Virus record (IMG/VR): IMGVR_UViG_2706795384_000001
Location: 7,201 to 71,200 of that record
Strand: one strand, 5' to 3'
Length of the DNA: 64,000 bases
Origin: a virus
Taxonomy: Duplodnaviria; Caudoviricetes
Position numbers and translations under genes: made by a program. This document shows, piece after piece, positions 33,766-60,637 of the stretch. Position 1 is the first letter of the stretch. Every line of letters begins with the position of its first letter. The notes below the pieces were generated by a model. That model searched no databases, was not told where the DNA came from, and saw only the letters and a list, made by a program, of their open reading frames with translations.

Positions 33766-33797
33766 AAACAGGCACACACCCCCATAGATTGGAAATG
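33766..33797 (+). promoter_or_regulatory. AAACAGGCAC-box promoter 1 (-10 TAGATT)
   Basis: Box + 9 nt + -10 + 6 nt + G; embedded in hairpin 33751-33784. Confidence 0.8.
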
Positions 33798-33829
33798 TAA
33801 GCACCACGCCACAACGAAAGACGGACCCC

Positions 33830-34276
33830 GTGAGAATCACCCACAAAGACACCAAAGAGTTCAAAGACGTAGAGCTAGCCAGTGGGCTGCACTCCATGAC
33901 AGTGGAAACGGCCAACGGCGCCCGAATCACCATCGTGGAAACCCCGGAAGGCTTGAGCCTCCACGAGGGCAGCCACCGCAGCCTCAGAGTCAGCCCCATA
34001 GCCTCAAACGTCATTGCCGTAGCAATCCGTGACCCGTTCATTGAGACCGCAGCCCCCATGACCCAAGTAGCCAACGAGGACGCTCTCGCGCTAATCCCCG
34101 GCGGTTCCAAGCTCTACAGCATCCGAACCAAAACACTGTGGGACTGGTGGGGCGTAACGTCGCCACTCGTGGCCAGCAACGACATAGGGGAAGACGGCAA
34201 TTCCCACATGCACGCCGCAAATTTCTGGAAAGCGGAAGCGCCCCTGCTGCTGGCCGCAAAGCCGGACAATGACTGA
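33830..34276 (+). CDS. Hypothetical protein
   Basis: GTG with GAAAG RBS. Confidence 0.7.
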   Translation: MRITHKDTKEFKDVELASGLHSMTVETANGARITIVETPEGLSLHEGSHRSLRVSPIASNVIAVAIRDPFIETAAPMTQVANEDALALIPGGSKLYSIRTKTLWDWWGVTSPLVASNDIGEDGNSHMHAANFWKAEAPLLLAAKPDND

Positions 34277-34523
34277 GGACGACATTGTTGAGGATCAGGA
34301 CCAGCTAGACGCCCTCCCGCTGGGGTCCGTGGTCATTGACAGCTACCGGGCGCCCCTCAATGGCGACGTTTACCGCTCACACATCACTAACGGGTTCGTT
34401 CGCTGGTTCCAGGCAGGACCACAAGGCGTTTTCGTCACCGTGTGTTTCCCCGCCAAAGTCCTCCACCGCACTGACCTACCCACCACCACCGAACTGTTCC
34501 TGAAAGGACTAATCAGCCAATGA
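34269..34523 (+). CDS. Hypothetical protein (DALPLGSVV motif)
   Basis: Coupled ORF. Confidence 0.65.
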   Translation: MTEDDIVEDQDQLDALPLGSVVIDSYRAPLNGDVYRSHITNGFVRWFQAGPQGVFVTVCFPAKVLHRTDLPTTTELFLKGLISQ

Positions 34524-34990
34524 CCACCCTTGACGAAATCAGGGAACGCACTAGGTCCGCACTGAACACCCGGTTGCGCACCCTCAAGATAGAGCCGGAC
34601 CCCATCATGGGTGAATACTCACCCTTGCTGGCTGCCACGGACGACGGCCTATTCAACCTGATCCTGACCGTTTCGGACGGCAACTATGACACCCCGGTTG
34701 TCCCTTTGGCAGACGCCCACCAGATCGTGCACGCAGCCCGGGACGCCCACGCCCTCATGCTGGCCCTTGACGCAATCCGGGCACAGGTGAGCTTCACGGC
34801 CGAACAGTTCCGCAACACCTCCAACCGGCTCAACCAGGAAGTCATTGACGGCAGCCCTGACCGCGACGTCGACGCCGCTGCCCGATACGCGAACTACGCG
34901 AGCGCCAACGAGGCCATAGCCAGCCGGCTGGACAAGATCATTGACGACGTACTCAACCCCAAAGAGGAAGGCAACCCCGATGCCAACTAA
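34520..34990 (+). CDS. Hypothetical protein
   Basis: ATGA coupling, RBS GAAAGGA. Confidence 0.7.
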   Translation: MTTLDEIRERTRSALNTRLRTLKIEPDPIMGEYSPLLAATDDGLFNLILTVSDGNYDTPVVPLADAHQIVHAARDAHALMLALDAIRAQVSFTAEQFRNTSNRLNQEVIDGSPDRDVDAAARYANYASANEAIASRLDKIIDDVLNPKEEGNPDAN

Positions 34991-35246
34991 GCGCCCCGTG
35001 AAGCCCCTGACCCGCAAGGTGGGCACCAAGCCCCTGCCCCAGTACGCCGAAACGAAACAGGCCAGCCCCCGCATTGTCGTGGACCCGGAAGCCAAGACCG
35101 TCATTCTGGACCTGCAAATGGACGGGGTGTTCCTCAAGATGGACCCCGAAACCGCGCGCAAGCTGGGGGCAGCACTGGCAGCCGGGGCAGCGAAAGCGGA
35201 AGGCCGCACCAAGGGCCACGTGTTCATGATTGACGGGGGCGAGTAA
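34980..35246 (+). CDS. Hypothetical protein
   Basis: RBS GAGGAAGG. Confidence 0.65.
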   Translation: MPTKRPVKPLTRKVGTKPLPQYAETKQASPRIVVDPEAKTVILDLQMDGVFLKMDPETARKLGAALAAGAAKAEGRTKGHVFMIDGGE

Positions 35247-36457
35247 TGAGCTCACTCACTGACCCCAAGGGCATCAAGGCCACTGCCCGGGCGATCTATG
35301 AGGGCGGACGGGAACACCCGCTTGCTGACCTGGCCCGACTCATTGACGGCGCAATCAGCGACGCCAACTTCCGGGGGCTGGGACAGTTCGACGTGGCCCG
35401 GTGGGTGGCTTACGTGATCACGGAAGACCAGAAAGCCCGGATTGCCGAGGCGGACAAGACAGCACCCCACGGCCAGTTCGTACCCAACCCGCCCGGTGGG
35501 CTACTGGACTCTGCCAAGCCCCTGCCCCGGGTGAACTCGTGGGAGAACAAGCCAGCACCCAAGAACACCGCAGAAACGCCAGTAATCGAACTGGAACACC
35601 TGAACAGCGGCATGCTGCAAGAGCTCCTGAACCCGCACCCGGGCAAGGCTGCCCGGTGGATCATTGACCACTTGGAACCCGGCGCGTTTGACGACCTCAA
35701 AGCCATGGCCGTGCCCGTGGGCGCGCCAAACCCTGACCCCGAATATCCCAAGGTGCCGGACGCTGGCGAGTATCCCAAAGTGGAGTGGAACGACTCCCGC
35801 CCCGTCAAAGTCAGCTACCGGCAAGGCCCGGGGCTGTGGGACTTCCTCAAAGACGTGCCCACCATTCCCGACACCCCGAACCCGCTTGAGGGCTTCACCA
35901 AAGGGTGGGTGGCCTTTGGCGAGAAAAACCCACTGCCGCCCCTGCCCGACTTCCCCAAGCTGGACCTGTCAGGCATCCCCGCCATGCCCGTGGACATAAA
36001 AGAGAGCTTGGAACGCGCGAGCGAGCAACTACGCGAGAGCATGGAACGCGCCGCCAAGGCCGTCCGCAAGGGCATTGACGACGCCCGGGCAGCGGAAGCA
36101 CGCCGAATCCTGGCCGAACAGCCCCACGAACACATTTACGGGCGCGGGTCTAACGGTCTCTGCCGTATCTGTGGGGCAGAGTCCAACAGCCGGCGCGCGA
36201 GGGCTAAACGCCGCGCAATCCACAACGAGAAAGCCAAAGCCGCCGCAAAATACCCGCAGCACGCTTTTGGTGAGGAAGTGGACGTTTTGAGCCACCTCAT
36301 GAAAGCGCGAGTTCACGCCCCGGCGAACCATGAGGGCATGGTCACGGTGGTGTGGCCTGACGGCAGGGGCATGACACTGGAACATGTAACCACCCTCAGC
36401 GCCCCAGCGTCCCGACTCCACGAGGCGTTGAAAGCCAAGGGTGACGGCCATGAGTAG
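35246..36457 (+). CDS. Hypothetical Pro-rich mosaic protein
   Basis: 403 aa, TAATG coupling. Confidence 0.7.
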   Translation: MSSLTDPKGIKATARAIYEGGREHPLADLARLIDGAISDANFRGLGQFDVARWVAYVITEDQKARIAEADKTAPHGQFVPNPPGGLLDSAKPLPRVNSWENKPAPKNTAETPVIELEHLNSGMLQELLNPHPGKAARWIIDHLEPGAFDDLKAMAVPVGAPNPDPEYPKVPDAGEYPKVEWNDSRPVKVSYRQGPGLWDFLKDVPTIPDTPNPLEGFTKGWVAFGEKNPLPPLPDFPKLDLSGIPAMPVDIKESLERASEQLRESMERAAKAVRKGIDDARAAEARRILAEQPHEHIYGRGSNGLCRICGAESNSRRARAKRRAIHNEKAKAAAKYPQHAFGEEVDVLSHLMKARVHAPANHEGMVTVVWPDGRGMTLEHVTTLSAPASRLHEALKAKGDGHE

Positions 36458-36686
36458 ACGCCCCGGGCGTGCCAAAATGTGTGGGTGGCTGAGTTCGGCG
36501 CTTCACAGCATCCAGACGCGGCCAACCAACCCCGCTGACATAAAGCGCCTTGGTGCCCTCTCAGTCAAGGCAGAGAAAGACCTGCAAGCCCTTGCGTTTA
36601 TCGCGTTCCACCTGTCCTGGAACGTGTCCGCTGACCTTGATATGGCGTGGGAAAGCATCCAAGAGTATGACGCCGCACATGGATGA
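36450..36686 (+). CDS. Hypothetical protein
   Basis: Coupled ORF. Confidence 0.5.
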   Translation: MSRRPGRAKMCGWLSSALHSIQTRPTNPADIKRLGALSVKAEKDLQALAFIAFHLSWNVSADLDMAWESIQEYDAAHG

Positions 36687-37035
36687 AATCCCGGGGCTGT
36701 GGGGCGAACCAGAGGCGCCCCCAGCCCCGCGAGCTCTGCCCGTGTCGTGGGACGGCATCCCCATGGAATGGCGGGAATGGCACGCTGAGAACCAAATCAC
36801 GATATGCCCACCCATCCCCCGCGAGCCATGCCCCCACTGTGGCTTTGACGACGCCCCGCGCTCTATGTGCCGGGGCGTCCGGGTGGGTTCCAAGCTGCTG
36901 GGGCCACTCTTTGCGTTCCGCTGCCAGAGTTGCGGCGGCGACACCGTGCACGACCTGCAAGCTGGGGATACCTGGATCCTTGAGCTAGACGACTACGGGC
37001 CGGAAGGCTCAAACAACGTAAGGGTTGACCTATGA
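36679..37035 (+). CDS. Zinc-binding hypothetical protein
   Basis: CPHC and CQSC pairs. Confidence 0.65.
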   Translation: MDEIPGLWGEPEAPPAPRALPVSWDGIPMEWREWHAENQITICPPIPREPCPHCGFDDAPRSMCRGVRVGSKLLGPLFAFRCQSCGGDTVHDLQAGDTWILELDDYGPEGSNNVRVDL

Positions 37036-37181
37036 AACGCTTTTGGAAGTGACTAACCCGGCCCGACGCTGAAACAGCCCTCATGAACCGGGACGTTGAG
37101 AACATCACCGCACTGTTCAACTCCCTGCCCCTGCCCAAAAACGAAATCCCAAGCACCATACGCAAGGTCCGTTACTGGTAA

Positions 37182-37215
37182 AAACAGGCACGCCCCGGGG
37201 CAGACTGAGAGTATG
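37182..37215 (+). promoter_or_regulatory. AAACAGGCAC-box promoter 2 (-10 CAGACT), leaderless
   Basis: ATG 37213 exactly 31 nt from box start. Confidence 0.8.
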
Positions 37216-37539
37216 ACGACTAAACCGACACCCAACGCTGAGGTGCACCGCACCACGATAGCTAACCGTTTCCGGGGCTGGTGCGACACCCACCAAGACG
37301 GCTGGAACGGCACCCGGCCCACCGCTGAAAAGTGGGTCAAGAACCACAACGAGACCCACCACAAGGACAAGGCCACCTGTTGCCACTGCAACCGGCCAAT
37401 CACCCGGAACACAGCCCCCAAGCCGCGTGGCGCCGAACGCTGGCCCAAACGCGAGTGGGTGCACAACGTGGAAGACTTCGACCCCAAGAAACCAATGGAC
37501 TGTTTCGACCCCGAACCCTCACCAGGATGGACCCCATGA
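37213..37539 (+). CDS. Hypothetical Cys/His-rich protein
   Basis: Leaderless ATG. Confidence 0.65.
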   Translation: MTTKPTPNAEVHRTTIANRFRGWCDTHQDGWNGTRPTAEKWVKNHNETHHKDKATCCHCNRPITRNTAPKPRGAERWPKREWVHNVEDFDPKKPMDCFDPEPSPGWTP

Positions 37540-37850
37540 CCGCCGCAGAACCTCAGATTGGGGATACTGTCACCATCAACTCACCCGGGCACCGCATGCA
37601 CGGCAGAACCGGGGTTGTGGAGTACACCAAAAGCATTCTGGGCACTACCGGGGTGAGCATCAAGGGCGACCGTTACGGGTTCCTACCCAACGAGGTGGTG
37701 GCCGTCGCCCCGGCCCCTGAACCGTGCCATGAATGCCGGTGCCACATATCCCCGCCCTGTTCCGCGTGCGAGAACTGCACCCACTACGACGGGCGCGGCG
37801 ACAATTGCGAGAACCCCTGCCGAGACTGCCAAGACCACGAGGAAGACTGA
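37536..37850 (+). CDS. KOW/SH3-like plus Cys-rich protein
   Basis: IGDTVTI...HGRTGVV; CRCHISPPCSAC. Confidence 0.65.
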   Translation: MTAAEPQIGDTVTINSPGHRMHGRTGVVEYTKSILGTTGVSIKGDRYGFLPNEVVAVAPAPEPCHECRCHISPPCSACENCTHYDGRGDNCENPCRDCQDHEED

Positions 37851-38708
37851 ATGACCGCCACAGCTATTGATTCCATTCTTGCCGCCCACCCAGTCTGGGA
37901 ATACCGGATAGTGTCCCAGTCCATTACGTGCGCCGGTCCCGGCTGTGAATGGGAGGTATATCTGCCCCTCACGCACCGGGCTGAGGACGCGCACCGCGCC
38001 CACCAGGCTGAGGCCGTCGCCGCCGCCCTTGCACCCAAGCCCGTTGAGCTCACCACCAAGCCGCTGACCATGAACAGCACCCAACGCCCGGAAGTGTTGC
38101 GCCGATTCAACAGCGACATGGAGGGCGGCAAGCTCACCCTTGTGCACGATTCCGGGCTTCACCGTTACCTGACGTTCCGGCCCCGCAAGGGTAATTTCTG
38201 CTGGTTCGACATCATCACCAGCCCGGGCCAGTTGACCATCCGGGGCGACATGGGCGACTTTGTGTTCGTGCGCGAGCCGGACATGCTGAGGGACTTTTTC
38301 AGCCGCGACGTGAACCCCCACTATTGGCGGGAAAAGCTGGTGGCGCAAGACGTTTCCACCCCTGCATGGCAATATGAGCGCGATCTATTCCGCAAGTACG
38401 TGGCCCAACACTTTTGGGACCGCCGCACCCAGTACACCCCGGACGTGGCAGCCGCCCTATGGGAGGAAATCCGGCAGACCGGCCCCTTGGACGACTGGAC
38501 CGACGCCCACGACGCCACAAGCGCGTGGAACGCCCTAACCAGCTTCACCAGCGAGCAAGCCCCGGGCTACCGCTACGAACCGGACTACGAGGAAGAGTTC
38601 CACGACTACAGCTTCCAATATCTGTGGTGCTGCCACGCCGTGCTGTCGGTCTGCCGTGCGTATCGTGAGTACCACAAACCCAAGACCCTGGAAGGGGCCA
38701 CAGCATGA
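37851..38708 (+). CDS. Hypothetical protein
   Basis: 285 aa; CWFDIIT-x-PGQLTIRGDMG motif. Confidence 0.75.
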   Translation: MTATAIDSILAAHPVWEYRIVSQSITCAGPGCEWEVYLPLTHRAEDAHRAHQAEAVAAALAPKPVELTTKPLTMNSTQRPEVLRRFNSDMEGGKLTLVHDSGLHRYLTFRPRKGNFCWFDIITSPGQLTIRGDMGDFVFVREPDMLRDFFSRDVNPHYWREKLVAQDVSTPAWQYERDLFRKYVAQHFWDRRTQYTPDVAAALWEEIRQTGPLDDWTDAHDATSAWNALTSFTSEQAPGYRYEPDYEEEFHDYSFQYLWCCHAVLSVCRAYREYHKPKTLEGATA

Positions 38709-39127
38709 CAATTGCGCCTATCACCCAATCCGAAATAGACAACGTGGAGGTGACCCGCGAGGGCGACACATTACGTGCCGTCAACGGGGTTATCAAAGTG
38801 ACCGCGTGGATTACGGACCAACCCTCGGTGATCCGAACCCGGGCCGTGATGCTGTTGGCACTTGCCAACTACATTGACAGCCCACCCTTGCCGCCCTTTG
38901 AGTTCCCCAAGAACCACGCAGCCGTGTTACTCGCTGACACGCCCATGGTTGACGGTGCGGTTGGTTTGGCCAGGTTCACCCGCATTGAGAACAGCGGCTG
39001 GTTTAGCGCCGGGTTTGGCTGGCTGACTGAGGACACCATCCGCCGCGAGTTCACCAACTTGCGGGTGGTCTCTTGGGGCGTCCAAGGCGACCCCGAAAAC
39101 CAGATGCCGGACGAAACAACCGAGTAA
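38705..39127 (+). CDS. Hypothetical protein
   Basis: ATGA coupling. Confidence 0.7.
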   Translation: MTIAPITQSEIDNVEVTREGDTLRAVNGVIKVTAWITDQPSVIRTRAVMLLALANYIDSPPLPPFEFPKNHAAVLLADTPMVDGAVGLARFTRIENSGWFSAGFGWLTEDTIRREFTNLRVVSWGVQGDPENQMPDETTE

Positions 39128-39135
39128 GCCACCCC

Positions 39136-39175
39136 AAAAGCCCCGTGACGCATCCCACAGTGTCGCGGGGCTTTT
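39136..39175 (+). terminator. Intrinsic terminator
   Basis: AAAAGCCCCGTGAC...GTCGCGGGGCTTTT. Confidence 0.75.
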
Positions 39176-39213
39176 GCGTACTGTCAGCCCACCAGCAAAC
39201 AAAGAGGTTGACC

Positions 39214-39375
39214 ATGGCAAAGCACCGCGTAACCCACCTGACCAAGTGCCATGAGTGCGCCACACTCGTGGAGGAACCCTGCCGGTTCGCATTTGAGTAC
39301 GCCCTATGCTCGCGCCACAAGGACTGTAAACCGTGCCCCCTTTTAGAGTGGCGGGAAAAACAGGCACGGCACTAA
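39214..39375 (+). CDS. Small Cys-rich protein
   Basis: RBS AAAGAGG; six Cys. Confidence 0.55.
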   Translation: MAKHRVTHLTKCHECATLVEEPCRFAFEYALCSRHKDCKPCPLLEWREKQARH

Positions 39376-39391
39376 ATAGTGTGGGGATATG
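39358..39391 (+). promoter_or_regulatory. AAACAGGCAC-box promoter 3 (-10 TAGTGT), leaderless
   Basis: ATG 39389 at +31. Confidence 0.8.
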
Positions 39392-39820
39392 AGCACTTTT
39401 CAGAAACCCCGACGCAACACCCGCGCCCAACTGATTGACCAAGCCCGAACCCTTGGGGATCCCAACTGGTCCCTGTCCGTGCCGGCTGAGGCCAAGCAAC
39501 TTATCAACGCCCTTGCCGAACAGGTGGCCATTTCCATGCCACCACCTCAAGCGGTGATCCCGGAAGACGCCCCGCGTGACCCCATTGTGACGCTCGCGCA
39601 CAGCGCCAACCAATACCTTGAATACCGCAAGGGCAAGCTTGAAGACCACCTAGCCAACCTGGAACGCACCATTGCCGACCTACGCAAGTACCCCGGCAGC
39701 GACGGCGTGAACCTCATGATCCGCGCCACTGAGGCAGCCAACGCCGCCACCCAACTGCAAGCCGCAATGGAACACGCCGAACAGTTCGCCTACCTTGTGG
39801 GGGAACGCAAACATGACTAA
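39389..39820 (+). CDS. Hypothetical coiled-coil protein
   Basis: Leaderless ATG. Confidence 0.7.
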   Translation: MSTFQKPRRNTRAQLIDQARTLGDPNWSLSVPAEAKQLINALAEQVAISMPPPQAVIPEDAPRDPIVTLAHSANQYLEYRKGKLEDHLANLERTIADLRKYPGSDGVNLMIRATEAANAATQLQAAMEHAEQFAYLVGERKHD

Positions 39821-40920: not shown

Positions 40921-41067
40921 GCTTATAAGAGACCACCGTGGCCACATAGCAGGACATGTGGCCACGGTTACCAAGGAAGAACAGGAAGCCGCAGACAAGC
41001 GCGCGGCTGACCGCAACCCGCCCAACACGGACGGCGACTATGACCCCTATGACGATTGGATTGACTG

Positions 41068-41298
41068 GTGAAACAAGGAAAATACTGGTGCTTGGCCCTC
41101 ACGGTGCTGGCCGCGCTGCTGTTCGCTGCGCAGATTTGGACCGGGGACGGGCGCTATGGCGGCATTGCGTGGCTTGCTGTGGGGCTGGCAATCGTGGCCG
41201 GGTTGGTGGGCATCACCCAATCAGTCAAAGCAGAAAGCCAGGAACTCAAAAGCCACTTGGGCATGGACCAGAAACAGGCACGCGAGGGGCGAGACTGA
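41068..41298 (+). CDS. Two-TM membrane protein
   Basis: Two hydrophobic segments. Confidence 0.65.
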   Translation: MKQGKYWCLALTVLAALLFAAQIWTGDGRYGGIAWLAVGLAIVAGLVGITQSVKAESQELKSHLGMDQKQAREGRD

Positions 41299-41305
41299 AA
41301 GTATG
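41272..41305 (+). promoter_or_regulatory. AAACAGGCAC-box promoter 4 (-10 GAGACT), leaderless
   Basis: ATG 41303 at +31. Confidence 0.8.
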
Positions 41306-43919: not shown

Positions 43920-43928
43920 GGTGCCCAC

Positions 43929-43990: not shown

Positions 43991-44009
43991 CCCCCGCGAG
44001 CCCCGGCAG

Positions 44010-44043
44010 AAACAGGCACGCGCCCACAGAGAATGGGAATATG
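44010..44043 (+). promoter_or_regulatory. AAACAGGCAC-box promoter 5 (-10 GAGAAT), leaderless
   Basis: ATG 44041 at +31. Confidence 0.8.
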
Positions 44044-45511: not shown

Positions 45512-45846
45512 GGAAGAAACGCGAGCCGCGCACATTCGATTTCCGGCGCACCTACTGGGGTCACGCCTTTGACGTGCACGGCGTCCCGGACAAAAAACGC
45601 CCCGGCCAGTGGAAGCGCGGCAAGTTCACGGGCTGGACCATATCCACACCCCGGCCCATGCCAGGTGACCGGATGCTATGGGCCACCGCGCTGGGGCACA
45701 TAGTCGCTGAAATCACCGAAGTGGACCCATACCGTGACCCCCAAGACATGGCCAAAATCAAGGGCAAAGTTGTGGAGCGCGTAAGAACAGGCACGGGCGC
45801 TGAAACACTGAACACAGACGTAACTACCAAGAAAGTGAACCCGTGA
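45508..45846 (+). CDS. Hypothetical protein
   Basis: GTGA coupling, RBS GGAGG. Confidence 0.7.
   Translation: MRKKREPRTFDFRRTYWGHAFDVHGVPDKKRPGQWKRGKFTGWTISTPRPMPGDRMLWATALGHIVAEITEVDPYRDPQDMAKIKGKVVERVRTGTGAETLNTDVTTKKVNP
45785..45816 (+). promoter_or_regulatory. Box promoter 6, variant GAACAGGCAC (-10 AACACT)
   Basis: Same spacing; lies within the preceding ORF, upstream of the second MTase. Confidence 0.6.
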
Positions 45847-47441
45847 CCCCTGAACTGACCCCAGAGGAAGCCGCCGCCGTCGCTGAGGCGCTGGAAATTG
45901 CCAACGAAATCCAGATGCCAGCCCCGGCCCTCCACTACACCGATGAAAACGTGACCTTGTGGCACGGCGACTGTGTGGAAGTCCTCAAGACCTTGCCGGA
46001 CAACAGCGTCGACGCCGTCGTCACAGACCCGCCCTATGGCATCCGGTTTATGGGCAAAGCGTGGGACGGTGAAGACATTGAGGAAATGACCCGCAAGCGC
46101 CGCGAGTCCAAGCCCATGCCTGACGGTGTGGGTGGCCCGAACGGCGGCTATCAGTCCGCAAGCACTGAGGCCGGACGCTACAACCAGACGTTGACGGCGA
46201 ACCAGGCATTTGGGGAATGGTGCCTTGAGTGGACGCGCGAGTGCTTCCGTGTCCTCAAGCCCGGTGGCCACATTCTCGCGTTCGGTGGTTCCCGCACGTG
46301 GCACCGGCTCGCGTCCGCGGTGGAGGACGCCGGGTTCGAGATTCGGGACTCAATCGCGTGGCTCTACGGATCCGGGTTCCCCAAGTCCATGGACATTTCC
46401 AAAGCAATCGACAAAATGCGGCACGAGTCCGCGGACAAGCTCAAGGTCACCTCTTGGCTGGCTGATCAGGCCGACGCCAACAACATCACCCGCCGCATGC
46501 TGGACATTGCCATGGGCACCAGCGACATGGGCGGCTGGTGGCTGTCCCGGCTGGAACACCGTTGCCAAGTGCCCACCATGGAGCAAATCCCGCGGGTGCT
46601 GGCCACCCTTGGGGTGGAAGCTGAGGACGTGCCGGCCGAAATCCAGGAACTTATCTTTGAGCTCAACGGTGCCAAGGGCACCCCGGGCAAGGCATGGCTT
46701 GAGCGCGAGGTTGTGGGCACCCGGGAGACCGGCGACGCGCTGGGCTGGCTGCAATCCACTGGCAGCATTACCAAGACCGTGGACGTGACCACCGCAGCGA
46801 GCGAGGCAGCCAAGCAATGGGAAGGCTGGGGCACCACCTTGAAGCCGTCCTTTGAGCCTGTCGTTGTGGGCCGTAAGCCCATGCGGCTGACCACTGCGGC
46901 CAACGTGGTCAAGCACGGCACCGGGGGCATGAACATTGCCGCCACGAGGGTGGGCGACGAACCCCGCACGAACAAGGGCGGCAGCGCGTCCAGTCTGCAC
47001 GCCGTCAGCCGGGTGGAACAGGGCTACCGGGACACCATCACCGAGTGCGAGGGCGAGGCGTCCACCGTGACCGGGCGCTGGCCAACCAATGTGCTGCTGG
47101 ACGACTTCACCGCGGAACTACTCAACCAGCAAGAACGCGACGCCGCCCAATTCTTCCCCGTCTTCCAGTACGAGGCCAAAGCCCCGGCCAGCGAACGCCC
47201 CAACGTGGACGGCATCCAGCACCCCACAGTGAAGCCGCTGGACCTCATGCGCTGGCTTATTCGACTCGTGACACCCCCGGGCGGCACCGTACTGGAACCC
47301 TTTGCAGGGTCCGGCACGACGGCTGAGGCATGCGTAATGGAGGGTATGCAGTGCATAGCCATTGAACGGGAAACCGACTACCTGCCCTTGATCCGGCAGC
47401 GCCTTGAAAAGCCCATTGAGGTGGCCCTGTTCCAGGTCTGA
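45843..47441 (+). CDS. Beta-class N4-C/N6-A DNA methyltransferase
   Basis: VTDPPYG, HPTVKP, VLEPFAGSGTT. Confidence 0.92.
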   Translation: MTPELTPEEAAAVAEALEIANEIQMPAPALHYTDENVTLWHGDCVEVLKTLPDNSVDAVVTDPPYGIRFMGKAWDGEDIEEMTRKRRESKPMPDGVGGPNGGYQSASTEAGRYNQTLTANQAFGEWCLEWTRECFRVLKPGGHILAFGGSRTWHRLASAVEDAGFEIRDSIAWLYGSGFPKSMDISKAIDKMRHESADKLKVTSWLADQADANNITRRMLDIAMGTSDMGGWWLSRLEHRCQVPTMEQIPRVLATLGVEAEDVPAEIQELIFELNGAKGTPGKAWLEREVVGTRETGDALGWLQSTGSITKTVDVTTAASEAAKQWEGWGTTLKPSFEPVVVGRKPMRLTTAANVVKHGTGGMNIAATRVGDEPRTNKGGSASSLHAVSRVEQGYRDTITECEGEASTVTGRWPTNVLLDDFTAELLNQQERDAAQFFPVFQYEAKAPASERPNVDGIQHPTVKPLDLMRWLIRLVTPPGGTVLEPFAGSGTTAEACVMEGMQCIAIERETDYLPLIRQRLEKPIEVALFQV

Positions 47442-47442
47442 G

Positions 47443-47474
47443 AAACAGGCACGCACGGCAATAGGCTGAGACTG
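47443..47474 (+). promoter_or_regulatory. AAACAGGCAC-box promoter 7 (-10 TAGGCT)
   Basis: +31 = G of GTAAGC leader, as in promoter 1. Confidence 0.8.
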
Positions 47475-47499
47475 TAAGCCACAACGAAAGGGGCAACCC

Positions 47500-47925
47500 A
47501 TGCTTCAATACACCTACCCGGACGCCGGGACCGTCCCCGAATGGATCAAAGAGGGCGGCACTGTTGCTGTGGTCCAGAACGTCCGGTACGGCTACGGCAC
47601 GAGAGTAAATAAAGGCTTTGTTGAGCGCCTTACCAAAACCCAAGTGGTCCTGAATGACGGGCGCCGGTTCAACCTCAAGAACGGGCTAAAGGAAATGGGG
47701 GCAACCACCCGGCACACCTACGGCCCCGGGCCGTTGTTCTTGGCTGATTGGGAAAGCAAAGAGGTTAAGTCAGCTCTACATGTCCAGTTCATGCAGAACA
47801 CCGCGTCACTCATTGCCGTCAAGGCTCGCGCTTTCGAGAACGAACCAGACGGCAAGAAAGCCGTTGAGCTCATAGACCTGCTGACCCAGTGGGCCAAAGC
47901 TGACGGCATGGAGGTGCCCAAGTGA
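47500..47925 (+). CDS. Hypothetical protein
   Basis: RBS GAAAGGGG. Confidence 0.7.
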   Translation: MLQYTYPDAGTVPEWIKEGGTVAVVQNVRYGYGTRVNKGFVERLTKTQVVLNDGRRFNLKNGLKEMGATTRHTYGPGPLFLADWESKEVKSALHVQFMQNTASLIAVKARAFENEPDGKKAVELIDLLTQWAKADGMEVPK

Positions 47926-49500: not shown

Positions 49501-49743
49501 ATGTCAAGCAAGCCTGAACTCGGAACAACAGTCCTCTACACCACCAGCGAGGGCGTAGACGTTCCGGCGGTGGTCACTGCCGTGGTGGGAGACCGGGCAT
49601 GCCTCAAGATCATGTTCCCGCCGCACGTCAACGAGGACACCATCGAACCGGACCAGCAAATCCCCGTAGAGGGCACCCAATGGGGCACCGTGGCTTACCC
49701 CTACGCCTACCCGGCCAAGCCAAGGCATTGGCGCTACCGCTAA
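49501..49743 (+). CDS. Small SH3-like hypothetical protein
   Basis: PELGTTVLY...PAVVTAV. Confidence 0.6.
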   Translation: MSSKPELGTTVLYTTSEGVDVPAVVTAVVGDRACLKIMFPPHVNEDTIEPDQQIPVEGTQWGTVAYPYAYPAKPRHWRYR

Positions 49744-49776
49744 AACAGGCACACCGCTGCTTAGGGTGAGAATATG
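49743..49776 (+). promoter_or_regulatory. AAACAGGCAC-box promoter 8 (-10 TAGGGT), leaderless
   Basis: ATG 49774 at +31; box overlaps upstream stop. Confidence 0.8.
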
Positions 49777-52117: not shown

Positions 52118-52469
52118 CACGTGGCCCCGGGACGCAGACGGCAACATACGCATGGTGCTGTACGTCGCGGGGCCAATGACCGGGCTACCGGCCTACAACC
52201 GCCCCAAATTCAACGAGGTAACCGACGAATTACGGCGCTTTGGGTATCACGTGTTAAATCCGGCACGGCAGCCGTTAGGTTTGGAATATAACGACTATAT
52301 GAGGCGCGGAATCAACGACGTTCACAAGTCTGACGGGGTGGCTCTACTCCCAGGCTGGGAACAATCGAACGGTGCACGCCTTGAACAACTAATAGCCAGA
52401 AAGCTGGGGCTGGAATGCCGGCCCTATACCGACTGGGAAAACCTCTACGAACAGGAACCGCCACAATGA
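52107..52469 (+). CDS. DUF4406 / nucleoside deoxyribosyltransferase-like protein
   Basis: YVAGPMTG...NPA...LLPGWEQSNGARLE. Confidence 0.8.
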   Translation: MAADTWPRDADGNIRMVLYVAGPMTGLPAYNRPKFNEVTDELRRFGYHVLNPARQPLGLEYNDYMRRGINDVHKSDGVALLPGWEQSNGARLEQLIARKLGLECRPYTDWENLYEQEPPQ

Positions 52470-53047: not shown

Positions 53048-53051
53048 ACCC

Positions 53052-54306: not shown

Positions 54307-54308
54307 CC

Positions 54309-54853: not shown

Positions 54854-55199
54854 CTATGAGTTCGGTGGACCCGGACAAGGCAAAGGCCGATACATCAAAG
54901 CGGAAATTGCCGCCCACGTTGGCGAACTGCTGGGGCAAGAACACTGGATGAAAGACCTTGCTACCAAACCCCAGCCAGCCCCCTACATGGTTTTTGAGGC
55001 ACCAGAACCCCGCGACCCCGCAGCGATCCGGGCAGACCTCATGGCAGCCGAGAAACTGGAACACGACCCCGACGTCGTGCACGAGGAAGGCAGCTGGGGC
55101 GCTGCCGGCTGCCCCCGCTGTGACGCCATGGAACCCCTCAGCAACGAACTGCTACGGTCCACACTGCGAGGGCCGGAAGGCGCCGCCAATGGGGGCTAA
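54843..55199 (+). CDS. Hypothetical protein
   Basis: GTG with RBS GAAAGG. Confidence 0.6.
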   Translation: MTSNYEFGGPGQGKGRYIKAEIAAHVGELLGQEHWMKDLATKPQPAPYMVFEAPEPRDPAAIRADLMAAEKLEHDPDVVHEEGSWGAAGCPRCDAMEPLSNELLRSTLRGPEGAANGG

Positions 55200-55536
55200 G
55201 CGCGCACCGGCCACCGAACGATTCTGGGCGAAAGTGGACAAGAGGGAACCCCACGAGTGCTGGCCGTGGACGGCAGCAAAGACAGCGGCCCGTGAGGATT
55301 ACCAATATGGAGCGCTCAAGGTGGGTGGGCGCGTCGTTAGGGCCAACCGCTTTGCTTTGGAGCTCAAGCTGGGGCGCCCACTGGGTCCGGGGATGAAGGC
55401 GCGGCACACATGCGATAACCCGCCCTGTTGCAACCCAGCCCACCTCCTGGAGGGCACCCAAGCGCAAAACCTGCAAGACATGCACGACCGGGGGCGACAC
55501 CCCTACAAACGAAAGAGGCAAGAACATGGCCGGTGA
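55189..55536 (+). CDS. HNH endonuclease
   Basis: RFWAKV...CWPW...[15 protein letters not shown]...N. Confidence 0.88.
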
Positions 55537-56095
55537 AACCACCATAACGGTGATAGGCAATCTGACGAACGATCCCGAATTACGGTTCACGCCGTCCGGC
55601 AGCCCGGTGGCCAACTTCACCATTGCCAGCACCCCGCGCACGTTCGACCGGCAGAGCAACGAGTGGAAGGACGGGGAAACCCTGTTTTTGCGCGCGAGTA
55701 TCTGGCGCGACCCCGCGGAGAACGTGGCAGAGTCCCTGACCAAGGGCATGCGCGTGATTGTGTCCGGGCGGCTCAAGTCCCGCAGCTACGAGACCAAGGA
55801 AGGCGAAAAGCGCACGGTCATTGAGCTTGAGGTGGACGAAATTGGCCCGTCTTTGCGCTATGCCAACGCCAAGGTGAACCGGACCCAGCGCAACAACAAC
55901 GGCGGCGGTGGGTTTGGTGGCGGTAATCAGGGCGGCGGGGCCAGCCAGGGCGGCGGCAATGGATACAATCAGGGTGGCGGTTTTGGTGGCGGTGCAAGTT
56001 CCGCGCCGGCCAATGCGGACGACCCGTGGGCTACCCCGGGCGTGAGCAATGCTGGCGGCTGGGGTAACGGCCCCGATTCCGAACCGCCGTTTTAG
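55526..56095 (+). CDS. ssb: Single-stranded DNA-binding protein
   Basis: [16 protein letters not shown]; Gly-rich tail; terminal EPPF. Confidence 0.96.
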
Positions 56096-56237
56096 CTTCC
56101 AGTTGGTCCGGTTAGGTGCGTTTAGTGTGTGAGCGGAATTAGTACGCCGTGGACCACTCTAAAGATGATGTAGACGTTGCCAGCGATCCGGTAGCCAACG
56201 GGTGAAGGTGGAGGGCGTAGGGCGTTACGTTGGAAGC
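56095..56237 (+). ncRNA. Candidate structured RNA between ssb and its terminator
   Basis: About 150 nt non-coding; GCTTCCA/TGGAAGC closure, TGGTCC/GGACCA and CGTTG/CAACG stems. Confidence 0.3.
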
Positions 56238-56247
56238 CTTACGGGAT

Positions 56248-56279
56248 AGCCCCGGCGCACGCTCGCGCCGGGGCTTTTT
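56248..56279 (+). terminator. Intrinsic terminator
   Basis: AGCCCCGGCGC-ACGCTC-GCGCCGGGGCT-TTTT. Confidence 0.88.
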
Positions 56280-56290
56280 CGTGCCCTCAC

Positions 56291-56320
56291 TTGCGTAGCT
56301 ATGTAGTGAGGTGCTACATT
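56291..56320 (+). promoter_or_regulatory. Sigma-A-like promoter (TTGCGT-N18-TACATT) with palindrome TGTAG-N7-CTACA (56302-56318)
   Basis: Near-identical to promoter at 21227-21256 (minus strand). Confidence 0.78.
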
Positions 56321-56361
56321 CTTTCTAACGCAGTAACCCGCCACAGCAAAGGACCAGGAAC

Positions 56362-56586
56362 ATGGACGCAGAACTCAAGAACTCAATCGAACAGACCGCA
56401 ACCCGCCACGCAAATGAGGCGGCGCGGTTGCTGGACGAACTCGCGACCCACGCCACGCGCCTTGCCGAGCAAGTCCGACGCAGCCCCCGCAGCGGCTACA
56501 CGGCGGACGGCCTCAACGCCGAGGTTGCCGCGATCATGGCCCGTCTTGCCAAGGCCGACGCTTTGGTCACACTCACTGAACGCTAA
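56362..56586 (+). CDS. Small helical early protein
   Basis: RBS AAAGGA. Confidence 0.7.
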   Translation: MDAELKNSIEQTATRHANEAARLLDELATHATRLAEQVRRSPRSGYTADGLNAEVAAIMARLAKADALVTLTER

Positions 56587-56618
56587 ACCCCACCCCGCCA
56601 CAGCTAAGGAACCCCGAA

Positions 56619-58217
56619 ATGACCGCCACAGCTTACAAGTACGTTTCCACCGTCGAACCCACCTATGGCACCCGCACCGTGACCAACACCGAGACGGGCC
56701 ACGTCGTTACTGACGGCGATTTCGTGACCGTTGGCAAGGCCAAGACCGAATGGCGCGTTTGCTACCTCTACACAGACGGGCGCGTCCAGCTTGAACGGCA
56801 AGCCCAAAGCCCCAAGCGTGGCATGACCCGCCGCTTTGACCACATGGACAACCTCACGGTGGTTTACACCACCCGCAAGGCCGTAGAGGCCGACGACGAA
56901 CCCACGGTGGACGTTCACGTCTTTGCCAAGGGTGACCGTTTGTTCCACAACACAAGCCCGGTTATCTACACCGTGACCAAGGTGACCGCCCGGAAGGTGC
57001 ACACCGAAAGCCCCAGCGGCCTCAAGGTGGTGTTCGACGCGCAACACGACTCTTTGACCCCGGCCCCGGAACTGATCCCGGACACCACCCCGGCGTTGCC
57101 CGTCGTCAAGTCCGTTGTCCGTGAAATCACTTACTACGGCGCCCGGTGCATCAACACCACCACCCACCATGACAAGTCCGCCACGGGGCTGCGCACGGTT
57201 CGCATGGAATGGCTGGACAACGCAGACCCAAAGAACGGCGGCTGGGAAGCGGGAACCGTCACGGAAAAGCTGATAAAGGGCGACGCGTGGAGGAACCCCG
57301 CAAAGTTCGTGGAGCTTGTCCCGGAACACGTCATTGGTGGCTTTGGGGAAGAACTGGAACCCGCCCCGGGAAGCGAGGAAGCCGTGCGCAAGGCCGTGGC
57401 CGATGCCAAGGAAGACGCCGCGCTACTCGCGGACGTTCCCGCCCCCAAGCTGTCCAAAAAGAACCAAGCCCGTTATGACGAATGGGCGGCGCGTGTTGAG
57501 GGTGAGGGCTTCCACGTTGGGCAAGAGGTCATGGCCACCCGCGTGGAGACTGACGCCCGGGATTACGTCACCCGCCAATGGGAGGAACCCGCGGTTATCA
57601 CTGAGGTGCGAGCTTTTGACGCCGTGGTGAGGTTTGCGGACGGTTCCCACGGAAGTTCCGGCATTGGGGTGCGCGTCTTGGACGAAAGCGCCACCGCCGC
57701 TGACGGGTGGCCTACGGTTGCCGTCCTTGCGGAAACCATGGTGGGCATGGTTGGTATGGGCGAGGCTGTGGACTTGGAGGACGCCGCGGATGCCGCCGAC
57801 GATCTGTTCCCGGACGTACCCGCGGACGAAACCGAGCGTGCCGCGTACCACGCCCGGGCGGAAGCGATCATGAACGAGGCCATGGACGTTGCAAGGGCTG
57901 CGCTTGACGGCGACACCCCCACGCCGTTGCTGCACCCCAAGCGCGAGGTCTTCGACGTGAAGGCGTCCAAGGACGGCAAAGAGGTTGTGGAGGTGGTCAC
58001 GGTCTTGGGCAGCATTCACCGGGCGCGTTCTGTGGCTGACATGCTCGCGTGCAAGTACGGGTTCGGCCCGATTGCTTTGGAGTACCACACCAGCACCTTT
58101 GAAGCTCATTATGGGAAGGGTGGCGCGCTGGTTGAGATTGAGGACATGGACCCCGACGCCACGTTCGAGGTTGGCCCGTTTGATGAACAATTGACCGCTG
58201 AAATGGCGGCTGAGTAG
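56619..58217 (+). CDS. Large acidic multi-module early protein (several SH3/KOW-like units)
   Basis: 532 aa; VTDGDFVTV, FAKGDRLF, FHVGQEVMA segments. Confidence 0.75.
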   Translation: MTATAYKYVSTVEPTYGTRTVTNTETGHVVTDGDFVTVGKAKTEWRVCYLYTDGRVQLERQAQSPKRGMTRRFDHMDNLTVVYTTRKAVEADDEPTVDVHVFAKGDRLFHNTSPVIYTVTKVTARKVHTESPSGLKVVFDAQHDSLTPAPELIPDTTPALPVVKSVVREITYYGARCINTTTHHDKSATGLRTVRMEWLDNADPKNGGWEAGTVTEKLIKGDAWRNPAKFVELVPEHVIGGFGEELEPAPGSEEAVRKAVADAKEDAALLADVPAPKLSKKNQARYDEWAARVEGEGFHVGQEVMATRVETDARDYVTRQWEEPAVITEVRAFDAVVRFADGSHGSSGIGVRVLDESATAADGWPTVAVLAETMVGMVGMGEAVDLEDAADAADDLFPDVPADETERAAYHARAEAIMNEAMDVARAALDGDTPTPLLHPKREVFDVKASKDGKEVVEVVTVLGSIHRARSVADMLACKYGFGPIALEYHTSTFEAHYGKGGALVEIEDMDPDATFEVGPFDEQLTAEMAAE

Positions 58218-58236
58218 ACCGCAGTAAACCGCAACA

Positions 58237-58261
58237 GCCACCCCTTGTGGGTGGCTTTTTG
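58237..58261 (+). terminator. Intrinsic terminator
   Basis: AGCCACCC-CTTGT-GGGTGGCT-TTTT. Confidence 0.8.
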
Positions 58262-58273
58262 CGTTCCCGGGAA

Positions 58274-58307
58274 AAACAGGCACGCGCCGCGAAACAATGA
58301 GGATATG
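58274..58307 (+). promoter_or_regulatory. AAACAGGCAC-box promoter 9 (-10 AACAAT), leaderless
   Basis: ATG 58305 at +31. Confidence 0.8.
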
Positions 58308-58547
58308 AAAGCTTACGAGTATCAGACGGTGAAAGTCCCCCGCGCTCCCAAGGCACGCAGCAAGGCGCTGACGGCCTACGGCCAGCAAGGGTGGGAAGTC
58401 ATGGAAACCAAGGACGCGTGGCAACACACGGTGACGGTGACCATGCGGCGATTGCTGCCCGACGCAGCCAAGCCAAAGCCCAAGCCCATTGGGCTGCTGC
58501 CGTCGCTCATAGCTTGGGCCATGAACCGCCACAACACTGCTAAGTAA
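58305..58547 (+). CDS. DUF4177-like protein
   Basis: YEYQTV...YGQQGWEV. Confidence 0.6.
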   Translation: MKAYEYQTVKVPRAPKARSKALTAYGQQGWEVMETKDAWQHTVTVTMRRLLPDAAKPKPKPIGLLPSLIAWAMNRHNTAK

Positions 58548-58558
58548 AGGAACCCGTT

Positions 58559-59674
58559 TTGAAACTCACCATTGATTCCAGCGCGCTGAACGACGCCGTG
58601 GCGTTCGCTTCCCGTGCTGTGAACCCCCGCCATGCCGTGCCGACGTTGACGGGGCTTGTCCTTGAAGCTGCTGGCGGGGTTCTGTCCGTGCGAGGCTTTG
58701 ACCAGACCAAGGCCAACGCCATTGACGTGGCCGCGGACATTGAGGTGGACGGCAAGGCGCTGTTGCCCGGGGCGGTGCTGGCCAACATGCTCAAGGCGCT
58801 GCCGAACAGCAAGCCGCTTGACCTGGAGGTGGCCGAACGCGCCACGCTCAAGGTGGGCAAAGCCAAATACACCACCCCGGTCATGCCCATGGGCGACTAC
58901 CCCACTTTGCCGGGGCTGCCCCAGCGCCTTGGGTTCGTGGAATCGGACGCTTTCGCCCGGGCTGTGGGCCAAGTGGCGCACGCTGCCGGACGAAACACGA
59001 CGCCGGAAATCCTGAACGGCATCAAGGTGGAGGTCCGGGGCGACACGCTGGCGTTGCTGGCAACTGACCGTTACCGCATGGCCTACGCAGAAATGCCGTT
59101 CCAGCGCTACGCGGACACCCCATATGACGCTGATTTCCTTGTGCTGGCTGACGTGCTGGTGGGTGCTGCCCGGGCTGGCAGCGGCAACATGGACGTGCTG
59201 GGTTCGGAAGCCCGAATTGGGTTCGTGTCAGCCACGAGGACCAGCACCGCCAACGTCATGGGCGGCGACTACCCGCCAATTCGAAACCTGTTCCCGGAAG
59301 ACCACATGATTGCCAACCGGGCCACCGTGGACGTTGATAGCTTGCTTGGTGCGGTGACTCGTGCCGCCGTCGTCGTGGACGGGCAAAACCCCATCCGGCT
59401 GACGTTCCACCCGGGGGAAATAATCGTGGACGCTGGCCGCGCTGACTCCAACGCTGGCGAGGAAGCGGTGGAGGCGTGGCACGACTTCGAGACCGTAACG
59501 GCTGCCGGGTTCAATCCCACGTACCTGGCGGACGCGCTGCGTGCCCTGACCACCCCACAAGCGGCTTTCACGTTCCACGCGTCCACCACCCAAAAGCCAG
59601 TTGGCCTCAACGAGACGGGCGACGTGCTGACGGCAAAGCAACTGCTTATGCCCATGCGTATTACCAGCGTCTAG
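58559..59674 (+). CDS. dnaN: DNA polymerase III beta sliding clamp homologue
   Basis: 371 aa; LTGLVLE, GDYPTLP, ATDRYRMA, GDYPP, FNPTYLADAL, LLMPMR. Confidence 0.92.
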   Translation: MKLTIDSSALNDAVAFASRAVNPRHAVPTLTGLVLEAAGGVLSVRGFDQTKANAIDVAADIEVDGKALLPGAVLANMLKALPNSKPLDLEVAERATLKVGKAKYTTPVMPMGDYPTLPGLPQRLGFVESDAFARAVGQVAHAAGRNTTPEILNGIKVEVRGDTLALLATDRYRMAYAEMPFQRYADTPYDADFLVLADVLVGAARAGSGNMDVLGSEARIGFVSATRTSTANVMGGDYPPIRNLFPEDHMIANRATVDVDSLLGAVTRAAVVVDGQNPIRLTFHPGEIIVDAGRADSNAGEEAVEAWHDFETVTAAGFNPTYLADALRALTTPQAAFTFHASTTQKPVGLNETGDVLTAKQLLMPMRITSV

Positions 59675-59727
59675 GCGTGTTAATCTAAGAGTCCTTCCTG
59701 CGTCGGGTTGCGAGGGGTCATAGAGGG

Positions 59728-59759
59728 AACCGGGGTTATGCAAATGCCCCGGTTTTTTC
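59728..59759 (+). terminator. Intrinsic terminator
   Basis: AACCGGGG...CCCCGGTT-TTTT. Confidence 0.7.
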
Positions 59760-59767
59760 TTGCCCAA

Positions 59768-59800
59768 AAACAGGCACGCCGGCCGATAGTTTGGGAATTG
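59768..59800 (+). promoter_or_regulatory. AAACAGGCAC-box promoter 10 (-10 TAGTTT)
   Basis: Same box-to--10 spacing. Confidence 0.78.
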
Positions 59801-59830
59801 GAAGCACTTCCCACCGACGAAAGAGGATCC

Positions 59831-60253
59831 ATGATTCCCGTAGACCAAACCATTTTGCACACTGAGGAAACGGTGGGTAACTGCTGGCAAGCGTGCATTG
59901 CATCGTTGCTGGAACTGCCCATTGAGGACGTGCCCCACTTCATCTTGCACGAGGACTGGTGGGAAGCCACCAAGGCGTTCGTGTCCGTGCACAAGCCGGG
60001 TTGGACCATTGAGCATTACCCCACTGTTTTTCCGGCCTACCAGGACCCGGACCACCCGGAAGCCCCCACCCATGTGATTGGGTCCGGCCAGTCCCCGCGC
60101 GGCGACTTCCTGCATGCTGCGATTGTTGACGCCGTAACTGGTGAGCTCGCGCACGACCCGCACCCGTCCCGGGCCGGTTTTGTGGGCGAAATGGACGGCA
60201 TGTTCGCGCTCATTGCCAAGCCCGTGACCGAGTACGTGGAGGCAGCCAAGTGA
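59831..60253 (+). CDS. Hypothetical protein (GNCWQACIASLL...HDPHPSRAG)
   Basis: RBS GAAAGAGG. Confidence 0.7.
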   Translation: MIPVDQTILHTEETVGNCWQACIASLLELPIEDVPHFILHEDWWEATKAFVSVHKPGWTIEHYPTVFPAYQDPDHPEAPTHVIGSGQSPRGDFLHAAIVDAVTGELAHDPHPSRAGFVGEMDGMFALIAKPVTEYVEAAK

Positions 60254-60597
60254 GCTACGACATTTCAATGGAAAAGCCCCCCGCTGAGGGCTGCTGCGCA
60301 TGCCACGGTGGAAGCTACGAGGAAGTGGGGAACATGACCCGCAACGTGTCACCGTTGTGGCGGCACGCCGCCCCGCAGACTGATGGGCTGGCCGGTATTG
60401 GCGGCAAGACAGGTGGCGAGTTCGCCGCGTATCTGCGCACGGGCTTGGAACACATGAAAGCCCACCGGGCCGAGTATGAGCCGCTGGTGCGCGGCGACGG
60501 GACGTGGGGGAACTACACCAACGCCGTGGAATACATGACCAAGGTGGTGGAAGCCGCCGAGGCGAACCCAACGGCACGGTTCCGCGTGTGGTACTGA
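60250..60597 (+). CDS. Hypothetical protein
   Basis: GTGA coupling. Confidence 0.7.
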   Translation: MSYDISMEKPPAEGCCACHGGSYEEVGNMTRNVSPLWRHAAPQTDGLAGIGGKTGGEFAAYLRTGLEHMKAHRAEYEPLVRGDGTWGNYTNAVEYMTKVVEAAEANPTARFRVWY

Positions 60598-60605
60598 GTC
60601 CCGAA

Positions 60606-60637
60606 AAACAGGCACGGCGCGTGTCACGCTTGAAATA
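60606..60637 (+). promoter_or_regulatory. AAACAGGCAC-box promoter 11 (-10 CACGCT)
   Basis: Same spacing; intergenic. Confidence 0.78.

Follow-up and report, generated by a model that had tools for sequence, protein, structure and literature searches.

A repeated box in the non-structural arm of a Klausavirus genome

We analyzed a 64,000-nucleotide stretch of a Caudoviricetes genome (hereafter the window), which comprises bases 7201–71200 of the 71,200-bp virus record IMGVR_UViG_2706795384_000001, and focused on a short element, the AAACAGGCAC box, that recurs ahead of its non-structural gene blocks. The nearest relatives of this phage are the Arthrobacter myophages Colucci, PrincessTrina, Lymara, KBurrousTX and DrYang (Cluster AR, genus Klausavirus), which are about 80–85% identical to it over 31–59% of the tested region. 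Exact copies of the box start at window positions 33766, 37182, 39358, 41272, 44010, 47443, 49743, 58274, 59768 and 60606, and a G variant, GAACAGGCAC, lies at 45785; all are on the + strand. Across the whole genome, the exact box occurs 11 times in the forward and 0 times in the reverse direction, whereas a first-order Markov model predicts 0.18 and 0.08 copies for the + and − strands, respectively. A preliminary description of the window had listed eleven copies at these positions; its coordinates and strand are correct, but with the G variant the genome total is 12.

The twelfth copy (genome 4833–4866, window −2367, + strand) lies in the virion arm, 2.4 kb ahead of the window, where it overlaps the stop codon of a 655-amino-acid head-associated gene and heads a leaderless gene of 108 amino acids that is labelled ‘immunity protein’ in the relatives. 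This left-arm copy is conserved in four of the five relatives, at about 6.2 kb. In phage Abba, of the genus Ayohtrevirus, the head-associated and ‘immunity protein’ genes overlap with no promoter between them.

Within the window, every copy is followed at box+19 by a hexamer that resembles a bacterial −10 element. All eleven hexamers that had been reported there are correct, each having A as its second and T as its sixth base, a pair that would arise by chance with a frequency of 0.036 per site. Two further sites with one mismatch to the box, at 3979 and 7284, have no such −10 partner and are for that reason attributed to chance. A degenerate box-like site at 52257–52290 (AATCCGGCAC-N9-TAGGTT-tggaaTATA) was considered for membership and rejected, being degenerate and located inside a nucleoside deoxyribosyltransferase-like gene; it is probably non-functional.

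We refer to the eleven window sites as putative promoters 1 to 11, all on the + strand. Putative promoter 1 (33764–33799; box 33766–33775, −10 hexamer TAGATT at 33785–33790) has orthologous copies in all five relatives and is separated by a leader of about 33 nt from its gene, which starts with GTG at 33830. It overlaps a 14-bp inverted repeat (33751–33784) that persists in all five relatives although bases have changed in each arm, and the box occupies the loop and the 3' arm of this hairpin, which may mark the end of an early operon or may regulate promoter 1. The next three sites each place an ATG at box+31: promoter 2 (37180–37215; box 37182, CAGACT) at 37213 for an open reading frame (ORF) of 108 amino acids, promoter 3 (39356–39391; box 39358, TAGTGT) at 39389 for one of 143 amino acids, and promoter 4 (41270–41305; box 41272, GAGACT) at 41303 for one of 64 amino acids. 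Promoter 5 (44008–44043; box 44010, GAGAAT) is likewise leaderless, with the ATG at 44041 opening a DNA methyltransferase gene of 269 amino acids. Promoter 6 (45783–45818; AACACT), which carries the G variant, is followed by a leader and a methyltransferase gene starting with GTG at 45843; the same variant is found at another site in Colucci and PrincessTrina.

Promoter 7 (47441–47476; box 47443, TAGGCT) precedes a leader and a gene with its ATG at 47500. Promoter 8 (49741–49776; box 49743, TAGGGT) shares part of its extended box with the stop codon of the preceding gene, and its leaderless ATG at 49774 begins a gene for a Cas4/PD-(D/E)XK nuclease, after which come a helicase and further genes up to SSB. 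Promoter 9 (58272–58307; box 58274, AACAAT) places a leaderless ATG at 58305, opening an ORF of 80 amino acids that is followed by the sliding clamp gene. Finally, promoters 10 (59766–59801; box 59768, TAGTTT) and 11 (60604–60639; box 60606, CACGCT) both precede leaders, with the ATG of their genes at 59831 and 60671, respectively, and the operon behind promoter 11 includes a gene for a 47-amino-acid helix-turn-helix (HTH) protein (61175–61318, + strand). The blocks headed by the box therefore include methyltransferases, nuclease-helicase, recombination/SSB genes and the sliding clamp.

An invariant A−11/T−7 pair in fixed register with the box

To define the element, 57 box sites from six genomes were pooled and aligned, taking the A of the ATG at box+31 as +1; positions −11 and −7 were outside the search seed. 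The conserved box spans 12–14 bases and reads wA-AAACAGGCAC-GC, from about −33 to −20, with an invariant core. It had been described as occupying about −31 to −22, which is right as to position and too short as to extent. Between the box and the −10 hexamer, a stretch of 8–9 nt is G+C-rich and otherwise free in sequence. A−11 and T−7 are found in 57 of 57 sites, T−12 in just 26. Positions −6 to −1 read G-R-R-A-A-T, a GGGA-like discriminator that ends with T at −1, and +1 is A in 48 of the 57 sites, with an ATG there in about 39, or about two thirds.

The other elements of a bacterial promoter are missing from the alignment. No TTGACA-like −35 element is seen in the 57 sites, where positions −35 to −30 lack TTG and hold A-rich box bases instead, nor is an extended −10 element (TGn, −15 to −13), with 23 sites having G and 11 having T at position −15, and with C and G in 26 sites each at position −14. 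As members of the sigma-70/sigma-A type of −10 promoter, the sites thus have the A−11/T−7 pair and neither the −35 nor the extended −10 element. An isolated A−11/T−7 pair with free neighbors is the recognition pattern of region 2 of sigma-70-family proteins. Furthermore, the GGGA motif stabilizes −35-independent complexes through sigma region 1.2, as seen in work on Thermus and E. coli, and Feklistov in 2006 reportedly found that it lets −10-only promoters work. The earlier proposals of a promoter class with a sigma-A-type −10 element at −12 to −7, and of a box that stands in place of the −35 element, both agree with this alignment, which would place the start of transcription 7 nt past T−7, judging from the position of the ATG and from the T−1/A+1 step.

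The six ATGs reported at box+31 were verified, and they open ORFs of 64–269 amino acids with a third-position G+C content (GC3) of 0.61–0.78. In the remaining five copies, a leader of about 25–35 nt carries a GAAAG(A/G) run, resembling a Shine-Dalgarno sequence, 6–10 nt before the start codon; GAAAG is complementary to the 16S rRNA 3' end. The leaders at 33800–33829, 47477–47499, 59802–59830 and 60640–60670 have in common a (G)CCACAA(C/A)GAAAG-like run that ends 6–10 nt before the start. A purine had been reported at box+31 in most of these non-leaderless copies, and it is present in four of the five; the copy at 59768 has a T there and a G at +32.

This arrangement resembles the promoters of leaderless transcripts in Actinobacteria, where TANNNT lies 7–12 bp before the start, no −35 element is conserved and transcripts begin at purines flanked by a pyrimidine (Cortes et al. 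2013, PMC3898074). The phage sites are alike in the distance of the −10 element from the start, the missing −35 element, the purine start and the initiation codon at +1. They differ in that the actinobacterial promoters share no upstream box, whereas in the phage T−12 is relaxed (26 of 57 sites) and the box would provide the specificity.

We also considered whether the box might act in RNA, as a processing or translation signal on read-through transcripts, which would fit the presence of all copies on the transcribed strand and the purine-rich run before the ATG. We regard this as highly improbable: two fixed bases four positions apart, set off by a free spacer of 8–9 nt, form the DNA pattern of sigma region 2 rather than that of structured RNA, the purine run stops 1 nt short of the ATG and is too near for a normal Shine-Dalgarno interaction, and the copies past terminators would rarely be read through.

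Conservation of the box, start codons and terminators

The right arm of each of the five relatives contains 8–10 syntenic copies, all on the + strand. Of the 28 ATGs that these relatives have at box+31 or +32, 26 coincide with the starts of coding sequences that annotators had chosen independently of the box, in keeping with the earlier suggestion that the class produces mostly leaderless mRNAs. For example, the orthologues behind promoter 2 have their annotated start at box+31 in Colucci, PrincessTrina, KBurrousTX and DrYang; those behind promoter 8 start at box+32 in Colucci and one base earlier, at box+31, in the other four relatives; and the methyltransferase coding sequence of the relatives begins at box+31, matching promoter 5. 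The annotated starts of Colucci gp078 (20118) and PrincessTrina gp081 (22158), the two exceptions, differ from the box+31 ATG of their orthologues and, judging from that comparison, were probably mis-called.

Beyond these phages, a distant metagenome contig (L028) has five box sites and two more in which the hexamer is 1 nt farther away, a shift in spacing that corresponds to the tolerance seen in promoters. Across IMG/VR, the contigs with multiple copies are those of Klausavirus and one relative only.

At 16 or more of the 61 sites, a G+C-rich hairpin followed by a T run ends 5–17 nt upstream of the box, compared with 2.4% of random positions, an enrichment of about 10-fold. In the window, such terminators precede the boxes at 58274 and 59768. 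The first is an intrinsic terminator (58236–58256, + strand) with an 8-bp G+C-rich stem and a T run, whose end is 17 nt ahead of box 9; the second, an intrinsic terminator-like hairpin followed by T6 (59726–59758, + strand), leaves 9 nt to box 10, and the same layout is seen in Colucci. Because a new promoter is needed directly past a terminator, these positions support a promoter role.

An opposite role, in shut-off, would be expected if the box were a repressor or roadblock site, or an operator placed over promoters that are active by themselves. Stoperators, the L5 gp71 sites of Cluster A mycobacteriophages, are asymmetric elements on a 13-bp scale that occur in many copies, in one orientation and in short intergenic gaps. 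The phage box is likewise asymmetric, multi-copy, uniformly oriented and situated in short gaps at gene boundaries, and the conserved small HTH protein encoded at 61175, made from a box-driven operon, would fit negative feedback. Stoperators, however, are found in temperate phages that make an immunity repressor and are not known to be phased with a −10 element, and neither point holds here. Annotations of these phages list neither an integrase nor an immunity repressor. A constant 19-nt distance to the hexamer, with A−11/T−7 in 57 of 57 sites, is unexpected for a roadblock, copies placed after terminators have nothing to stop, and ANNNT alone would be too unspecific to serve as a promoter under an operator. 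A shut-off role is therefore very unlikely. On the strength of the phased −10 pair, the GGGA-like discriminator, the T−1/A+1 step, the upstream terminators and the start codons annotated in relatives, the box sites are very probably promoters.

The box is private to the phage group

The phage also has ordinary promoters. One canonical sigma-A-type promoter (24914–24943, + strand; TTGGTA-18-TATAGT) heads the operon 25131–33745, and a second (56291–56320, + strand; TTGCGT-18-TACATT) lies past a terminator at 56248–56275 and precedes genes at 56362 and 56619. Since these −35/−10 promoters exist alongside it, the box class represents a distinct architecture.

We asked whether the box is a promoter type of the host, using a sample of 401 genomes that represents the class Actinomycetes rather than the genus Arthrobacter. 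The composite box-N10-ANNNT was not enriched in these genomes: it matched 21 times, the reversed control 13 times, and no genome had more than 2 matches. A stricter pattern gave at least 80 scattered single matches in GTDB species, and a metagenome scan gave single, chance-like matches among the matches listed. Given that the composite is not enriched in either the 401 genomes or GTDB, the box is not a general host promoter type; the class is private to Klausavirus and one relative and is absent as a regulon from the sampled genomes of the host class.

The host might still read the box directly, through domain 4 of sigma-A in an odd register or through an alternative sigma factor or activator, in which case the sites would be strong constitutive or early promoters with no need of a phage protein. 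Many actinobacterial promoters function without a −35 element, and the GGGA-like discriminator would help them to do so. The host genome and GTDB scans count against this reading, as does the appearance of the phage's own canonical promoters, which look quite unlike the box. Moreover, the box fits none of the known TTGACA, ECF, SigB/F or WhiG motifs at a workable spacing; were AAAACA taken as a −35 element, a 14-bp spacer would be left. We consider direct reading by the host unlikely. ECF, SigB/F-type and WhiG-type promoters were each rejected for misfits of sequence or spacing to these motifs. A sigma-54 promoter was also rejected: the box contains GGCAC, but there is no GC at −13/−12 and A−11/T−7 is invariant instead. 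Actinobacteria are not known to have rpoN.

Searches for a polymerase or sigma factor of the phage itself bear out the earlier statement that none is visible. Six-frame searches of the phage with Sigma70_r2 and Sigma70_r4 gave no match at E≤10. One match to Sigma70_r4_2, in a leftward MerR-like HTH gene, scored 13.3 bits and is under the 25.7-bit cut-off. A T7-like RNA polymerase (PF00940) had no match in the phage, and the control genomes likewise gave none. No non-structural ORF exceeds 580 amino acids, and a promoter for a single-subunit phage RNA polymerase, T7-like or N4-like, was rejected on these two results. MotA and AsiA (PF09158, PF09010) had no match at E≤10, with control genomes also giving none above the cut-off, and neither WYL nor WhiB domains were found in the phage.

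A hidden and highly divergent phage sigma factor that reads both the box and ANNNT was weighed as well. Phage sigma factors such as T4 gp55 and SPO1 gp28/gp34 can elude profile searches, more than half of the genes are without an assigned function, and another private class built around ANNNT in the same way (see below) is what a sigma cascade would look like. Set against this are the negative six-frame searches, the A−11/T−7 pair with GGGA, which is the signature of a housekeeping sigma factor, and the candidate early proteins, for which neither PDB sequence searches nor the ESM Atlas yielded any match, sigma-like or other. Such a factor is improbable.

Candidate readers and a second box class

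Three proteins were examined as possible readers, the preliminary description having named HTH and zinc-finger genes of the window as candidates. Its suggestion survives for one of them, the 84-amino-acid HTH protein at 27008–27262 (+ strand), which is encoded within the operon driven by the sigma-A-type promoter at 24914. Every relative has this protein, at 80–92% identity and with its recognition helix unchanged, and among 50,697 phage records tblastn matched the 24 Klausavirus records and no others. Its AlphaFold model (pLDDT 76) consists of a long helix and a C-terminal HTH; in a Foldseek search the best match had E=0.66 and none was significant. It is the best remaining candidate. The double zinc-finger protein at 31256–31639 (+ strand; Phage_zn_bind_8) is excluded as a universal reader because two box-bearing relatives, PrincessTrina and KBurrousTX, have no homologue. 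Across 20 early or regulatory ORFs, Pfam and PHROGs returned generic HTH or zinc-finger labels only.

The third protein, the 47-amino-acid HTH at 61175, is the best-conserved small protein, being 88–95% identical in the relatives and 81% in L028, where most other shared proteins are 26–69% identical. A profile search of 1.8 billion proteins assigned it to a family of 44–72-amino-acid proteins with the pattern YA(S/T)T..DL..L..LG.P.E..A.RMGR...AV..ML, while scans of IMG/VR found the same six contigs only. It shows no relationship to the 84-amino-acid protein. Its gene belongs to a box-driven operon, and a homologue exists in Abba, a phage without the AAACAGGCAC box. A zinc-ribbon-like frame (CPRC ... 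CPC) at about 61095–61178 meets the GTG start of this gene in a GTGA overlap, which suggests translational coupling.

The 47-amino-acid protein fits better with a second box class. The pattern CC-GTCCCACA-N19-(C)ANNNT-N6-ATG occurs in seven copies on the + strand of the genome, at window positions 3728, 6020, 14783 and 21540 and at genome positions 1391, 5257 and 6984, ahead of virion genes; we call it the late box. In this class, A−11/T−7 is again invariant and most starts are leaderless. The late box is also present in PrincessTrina, in Abba and before the portal gene of a metagenome contig (L144). Because Abba has both the late box and the 47-amino-acid HTH protein but not the AAACAGGCAC box, this protein is more likely linked to the late box, contrary to its earlier listing as a candidate for the AAACAGGCAC box.

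The two classes are alike in having a private box, the A−11/T−7 pair, a leaderless ATG and a + strand orientation. The late class differs in that its box lies at −39 to −32, it heads virion genes and it is common to Ayohtrevirus, which is without the AAACAGGCAC box. In the non-structural arm of Abba (32850–32890, 36440–36478 and 41050–41096), GTG(C/T)TAGTTTG promoters of the extended −10 type (TGn-TANNNT) are found in place of the AAACAGGCAC box. The existence of the two classes suggests a cascade in which ordinary promoters would be followed by the AAACAGGCAC class and then by the GTCCCACA class.

A model of host polymerase steered by a phage factor

We hypothesize that host RNA polymerase with sigma-A reads a minimal −10 element, in which just A−11 and T−7 are fixed, aided by the GGGA-like discriminator. 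Transcription would start at the purine 7 nt past the last T of the hexamer, mostly the A of an ATG, and because the start would coincide with the A of the ATG in most copies, the mRNA would have no leader. The box wA-AAACAGGCAC-GC (−33 to −20) would take the role of the −35 element, being read by a phage-encoded protein that contacts or displaces sigma domain 4. The class would drive 11 non-structural gene blocks and the one ‘immunity protein’ gene in the virion arm, and it would fire after the operon of the ordinary promoter at 24914–24943, which encodes the 84-amino-acid HTH protein. As a whole, this model of host sigma-A polymerase steered by a phage factor at private box promoters seems to us a reasonably probable account. 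Its reading of the box with a phage-encoded factor, together with the ‘middle’ timing, derives from the missing −35 element, the composite missing from host-class genomes and the location downstream of the canonical-promoter operon; we judge such a factor to be somewhat more probable than its absence. That the factor is the protein encoded at 27008 is doubtful.

Several points weigh against the model. The 84-amino-acid protein is modeled as an HTH of generic type that matches no known structure significantly, and its restriction to the genus is shared with many other genus-specific genes. A factor peculiar to Arthrobacter could have gone unseen, given that the host sample represents the class and not the genus. 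In addition, the purine run before the ATG could be a closely spaced ribosome-binding site on read-through transcripts, and the start of transcription, the sigma factor used and the timing are all inferred from sequence. Three soil DNA runs contain small shares of the phage; no RNA run does.

Two known systems come close to the proposed arrangement. At PafBC promoters, a −26 element at −28 to −23 is combined with a canonical −10 element and no −35 element, and PafBC inserts between the DNA and domain 4 of sigma-A (Mueller et al. 2021, PMC8635444). The phage box has the geometry of such a ‘sigma adaptation’ promoter: it belongs to the same phylum, has a canonical sigma-A −10 element, no −35 element and a fixed distance to the −10 element, and its core (−31 to −22) covers the positions of the PafBC element. 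The sequences differ, the PafBC element being tGTCgg, of which PafB reads GTC, and the phage box having CAGGCA at those positions, and PafBC is a host WYL heterodimer triggered by DNA damage, whereas the phage has no WYL domain and the box is not a host regulon in the 401 genomes.

At T4 middle promoters, the MotA box and AsiA bring about ‘sigma appropriation’ (PMC7403470). There too, a phage-private, asymmetric box in place of the −35 element is combined with a host-type −10 element in many copies, and the T4 copies form a temporal class read by host RNA polymerase together with phage proteins, as we propose for the box class. The T4 box, (a/t)(a/t)(a/t)TGCTTtA, is not matched by the phage box, whose center is near −26.5; the phage has no MotA or AsiA homologue, its host is Gram-positive with a high G+C content, and its mRNAs would be mostly leaderless. 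The MotA box is centered near −30. By analogy with PafBC, a small phage HTH protein, perhaps that of 84 amino acids, might sit between sigma-A domain 4 and the DNA, a viral form of PafBC-like sigma adaptation within a three-step cascade; we offer this only tentatively.

In the literature covered, which left outside the article on vB_ArtM-ArV1 (J Virol 2017), the motif was not found in a phage context and there was nothing on Klausavirus; the Cluster AR papers and the ArV2 paper contain no promoter description.

Implications

Phage boxes in place of a −35 element are already known; the present case stands out for its systematic leaderless starts and for a −26-type geometry with a host from the Actinobacteria. 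Recognition without a −35 element is the rule in this group of bacteria and poorly understood, PafBC being so far the only case explained structurally. If our reading is correct, the phage would offer a compact system in which to study how promoters without a −35 element are specified in high-G+C Gram-positive bacteria, with 12 natural promoters and 57 variants from six genomes. In Arthrobacter and related industrial actinobacteria, the same elements could serve as orthogonal promoter parts that can be switched and that bring leaderless translation with them. For the phages themselves, the box would settle where about 30 genes in each genome really begin and would correct at least two annotated starts in relatives, and a phage factor acting at it would show ‘sigma adaptation’ to be a general strategy.

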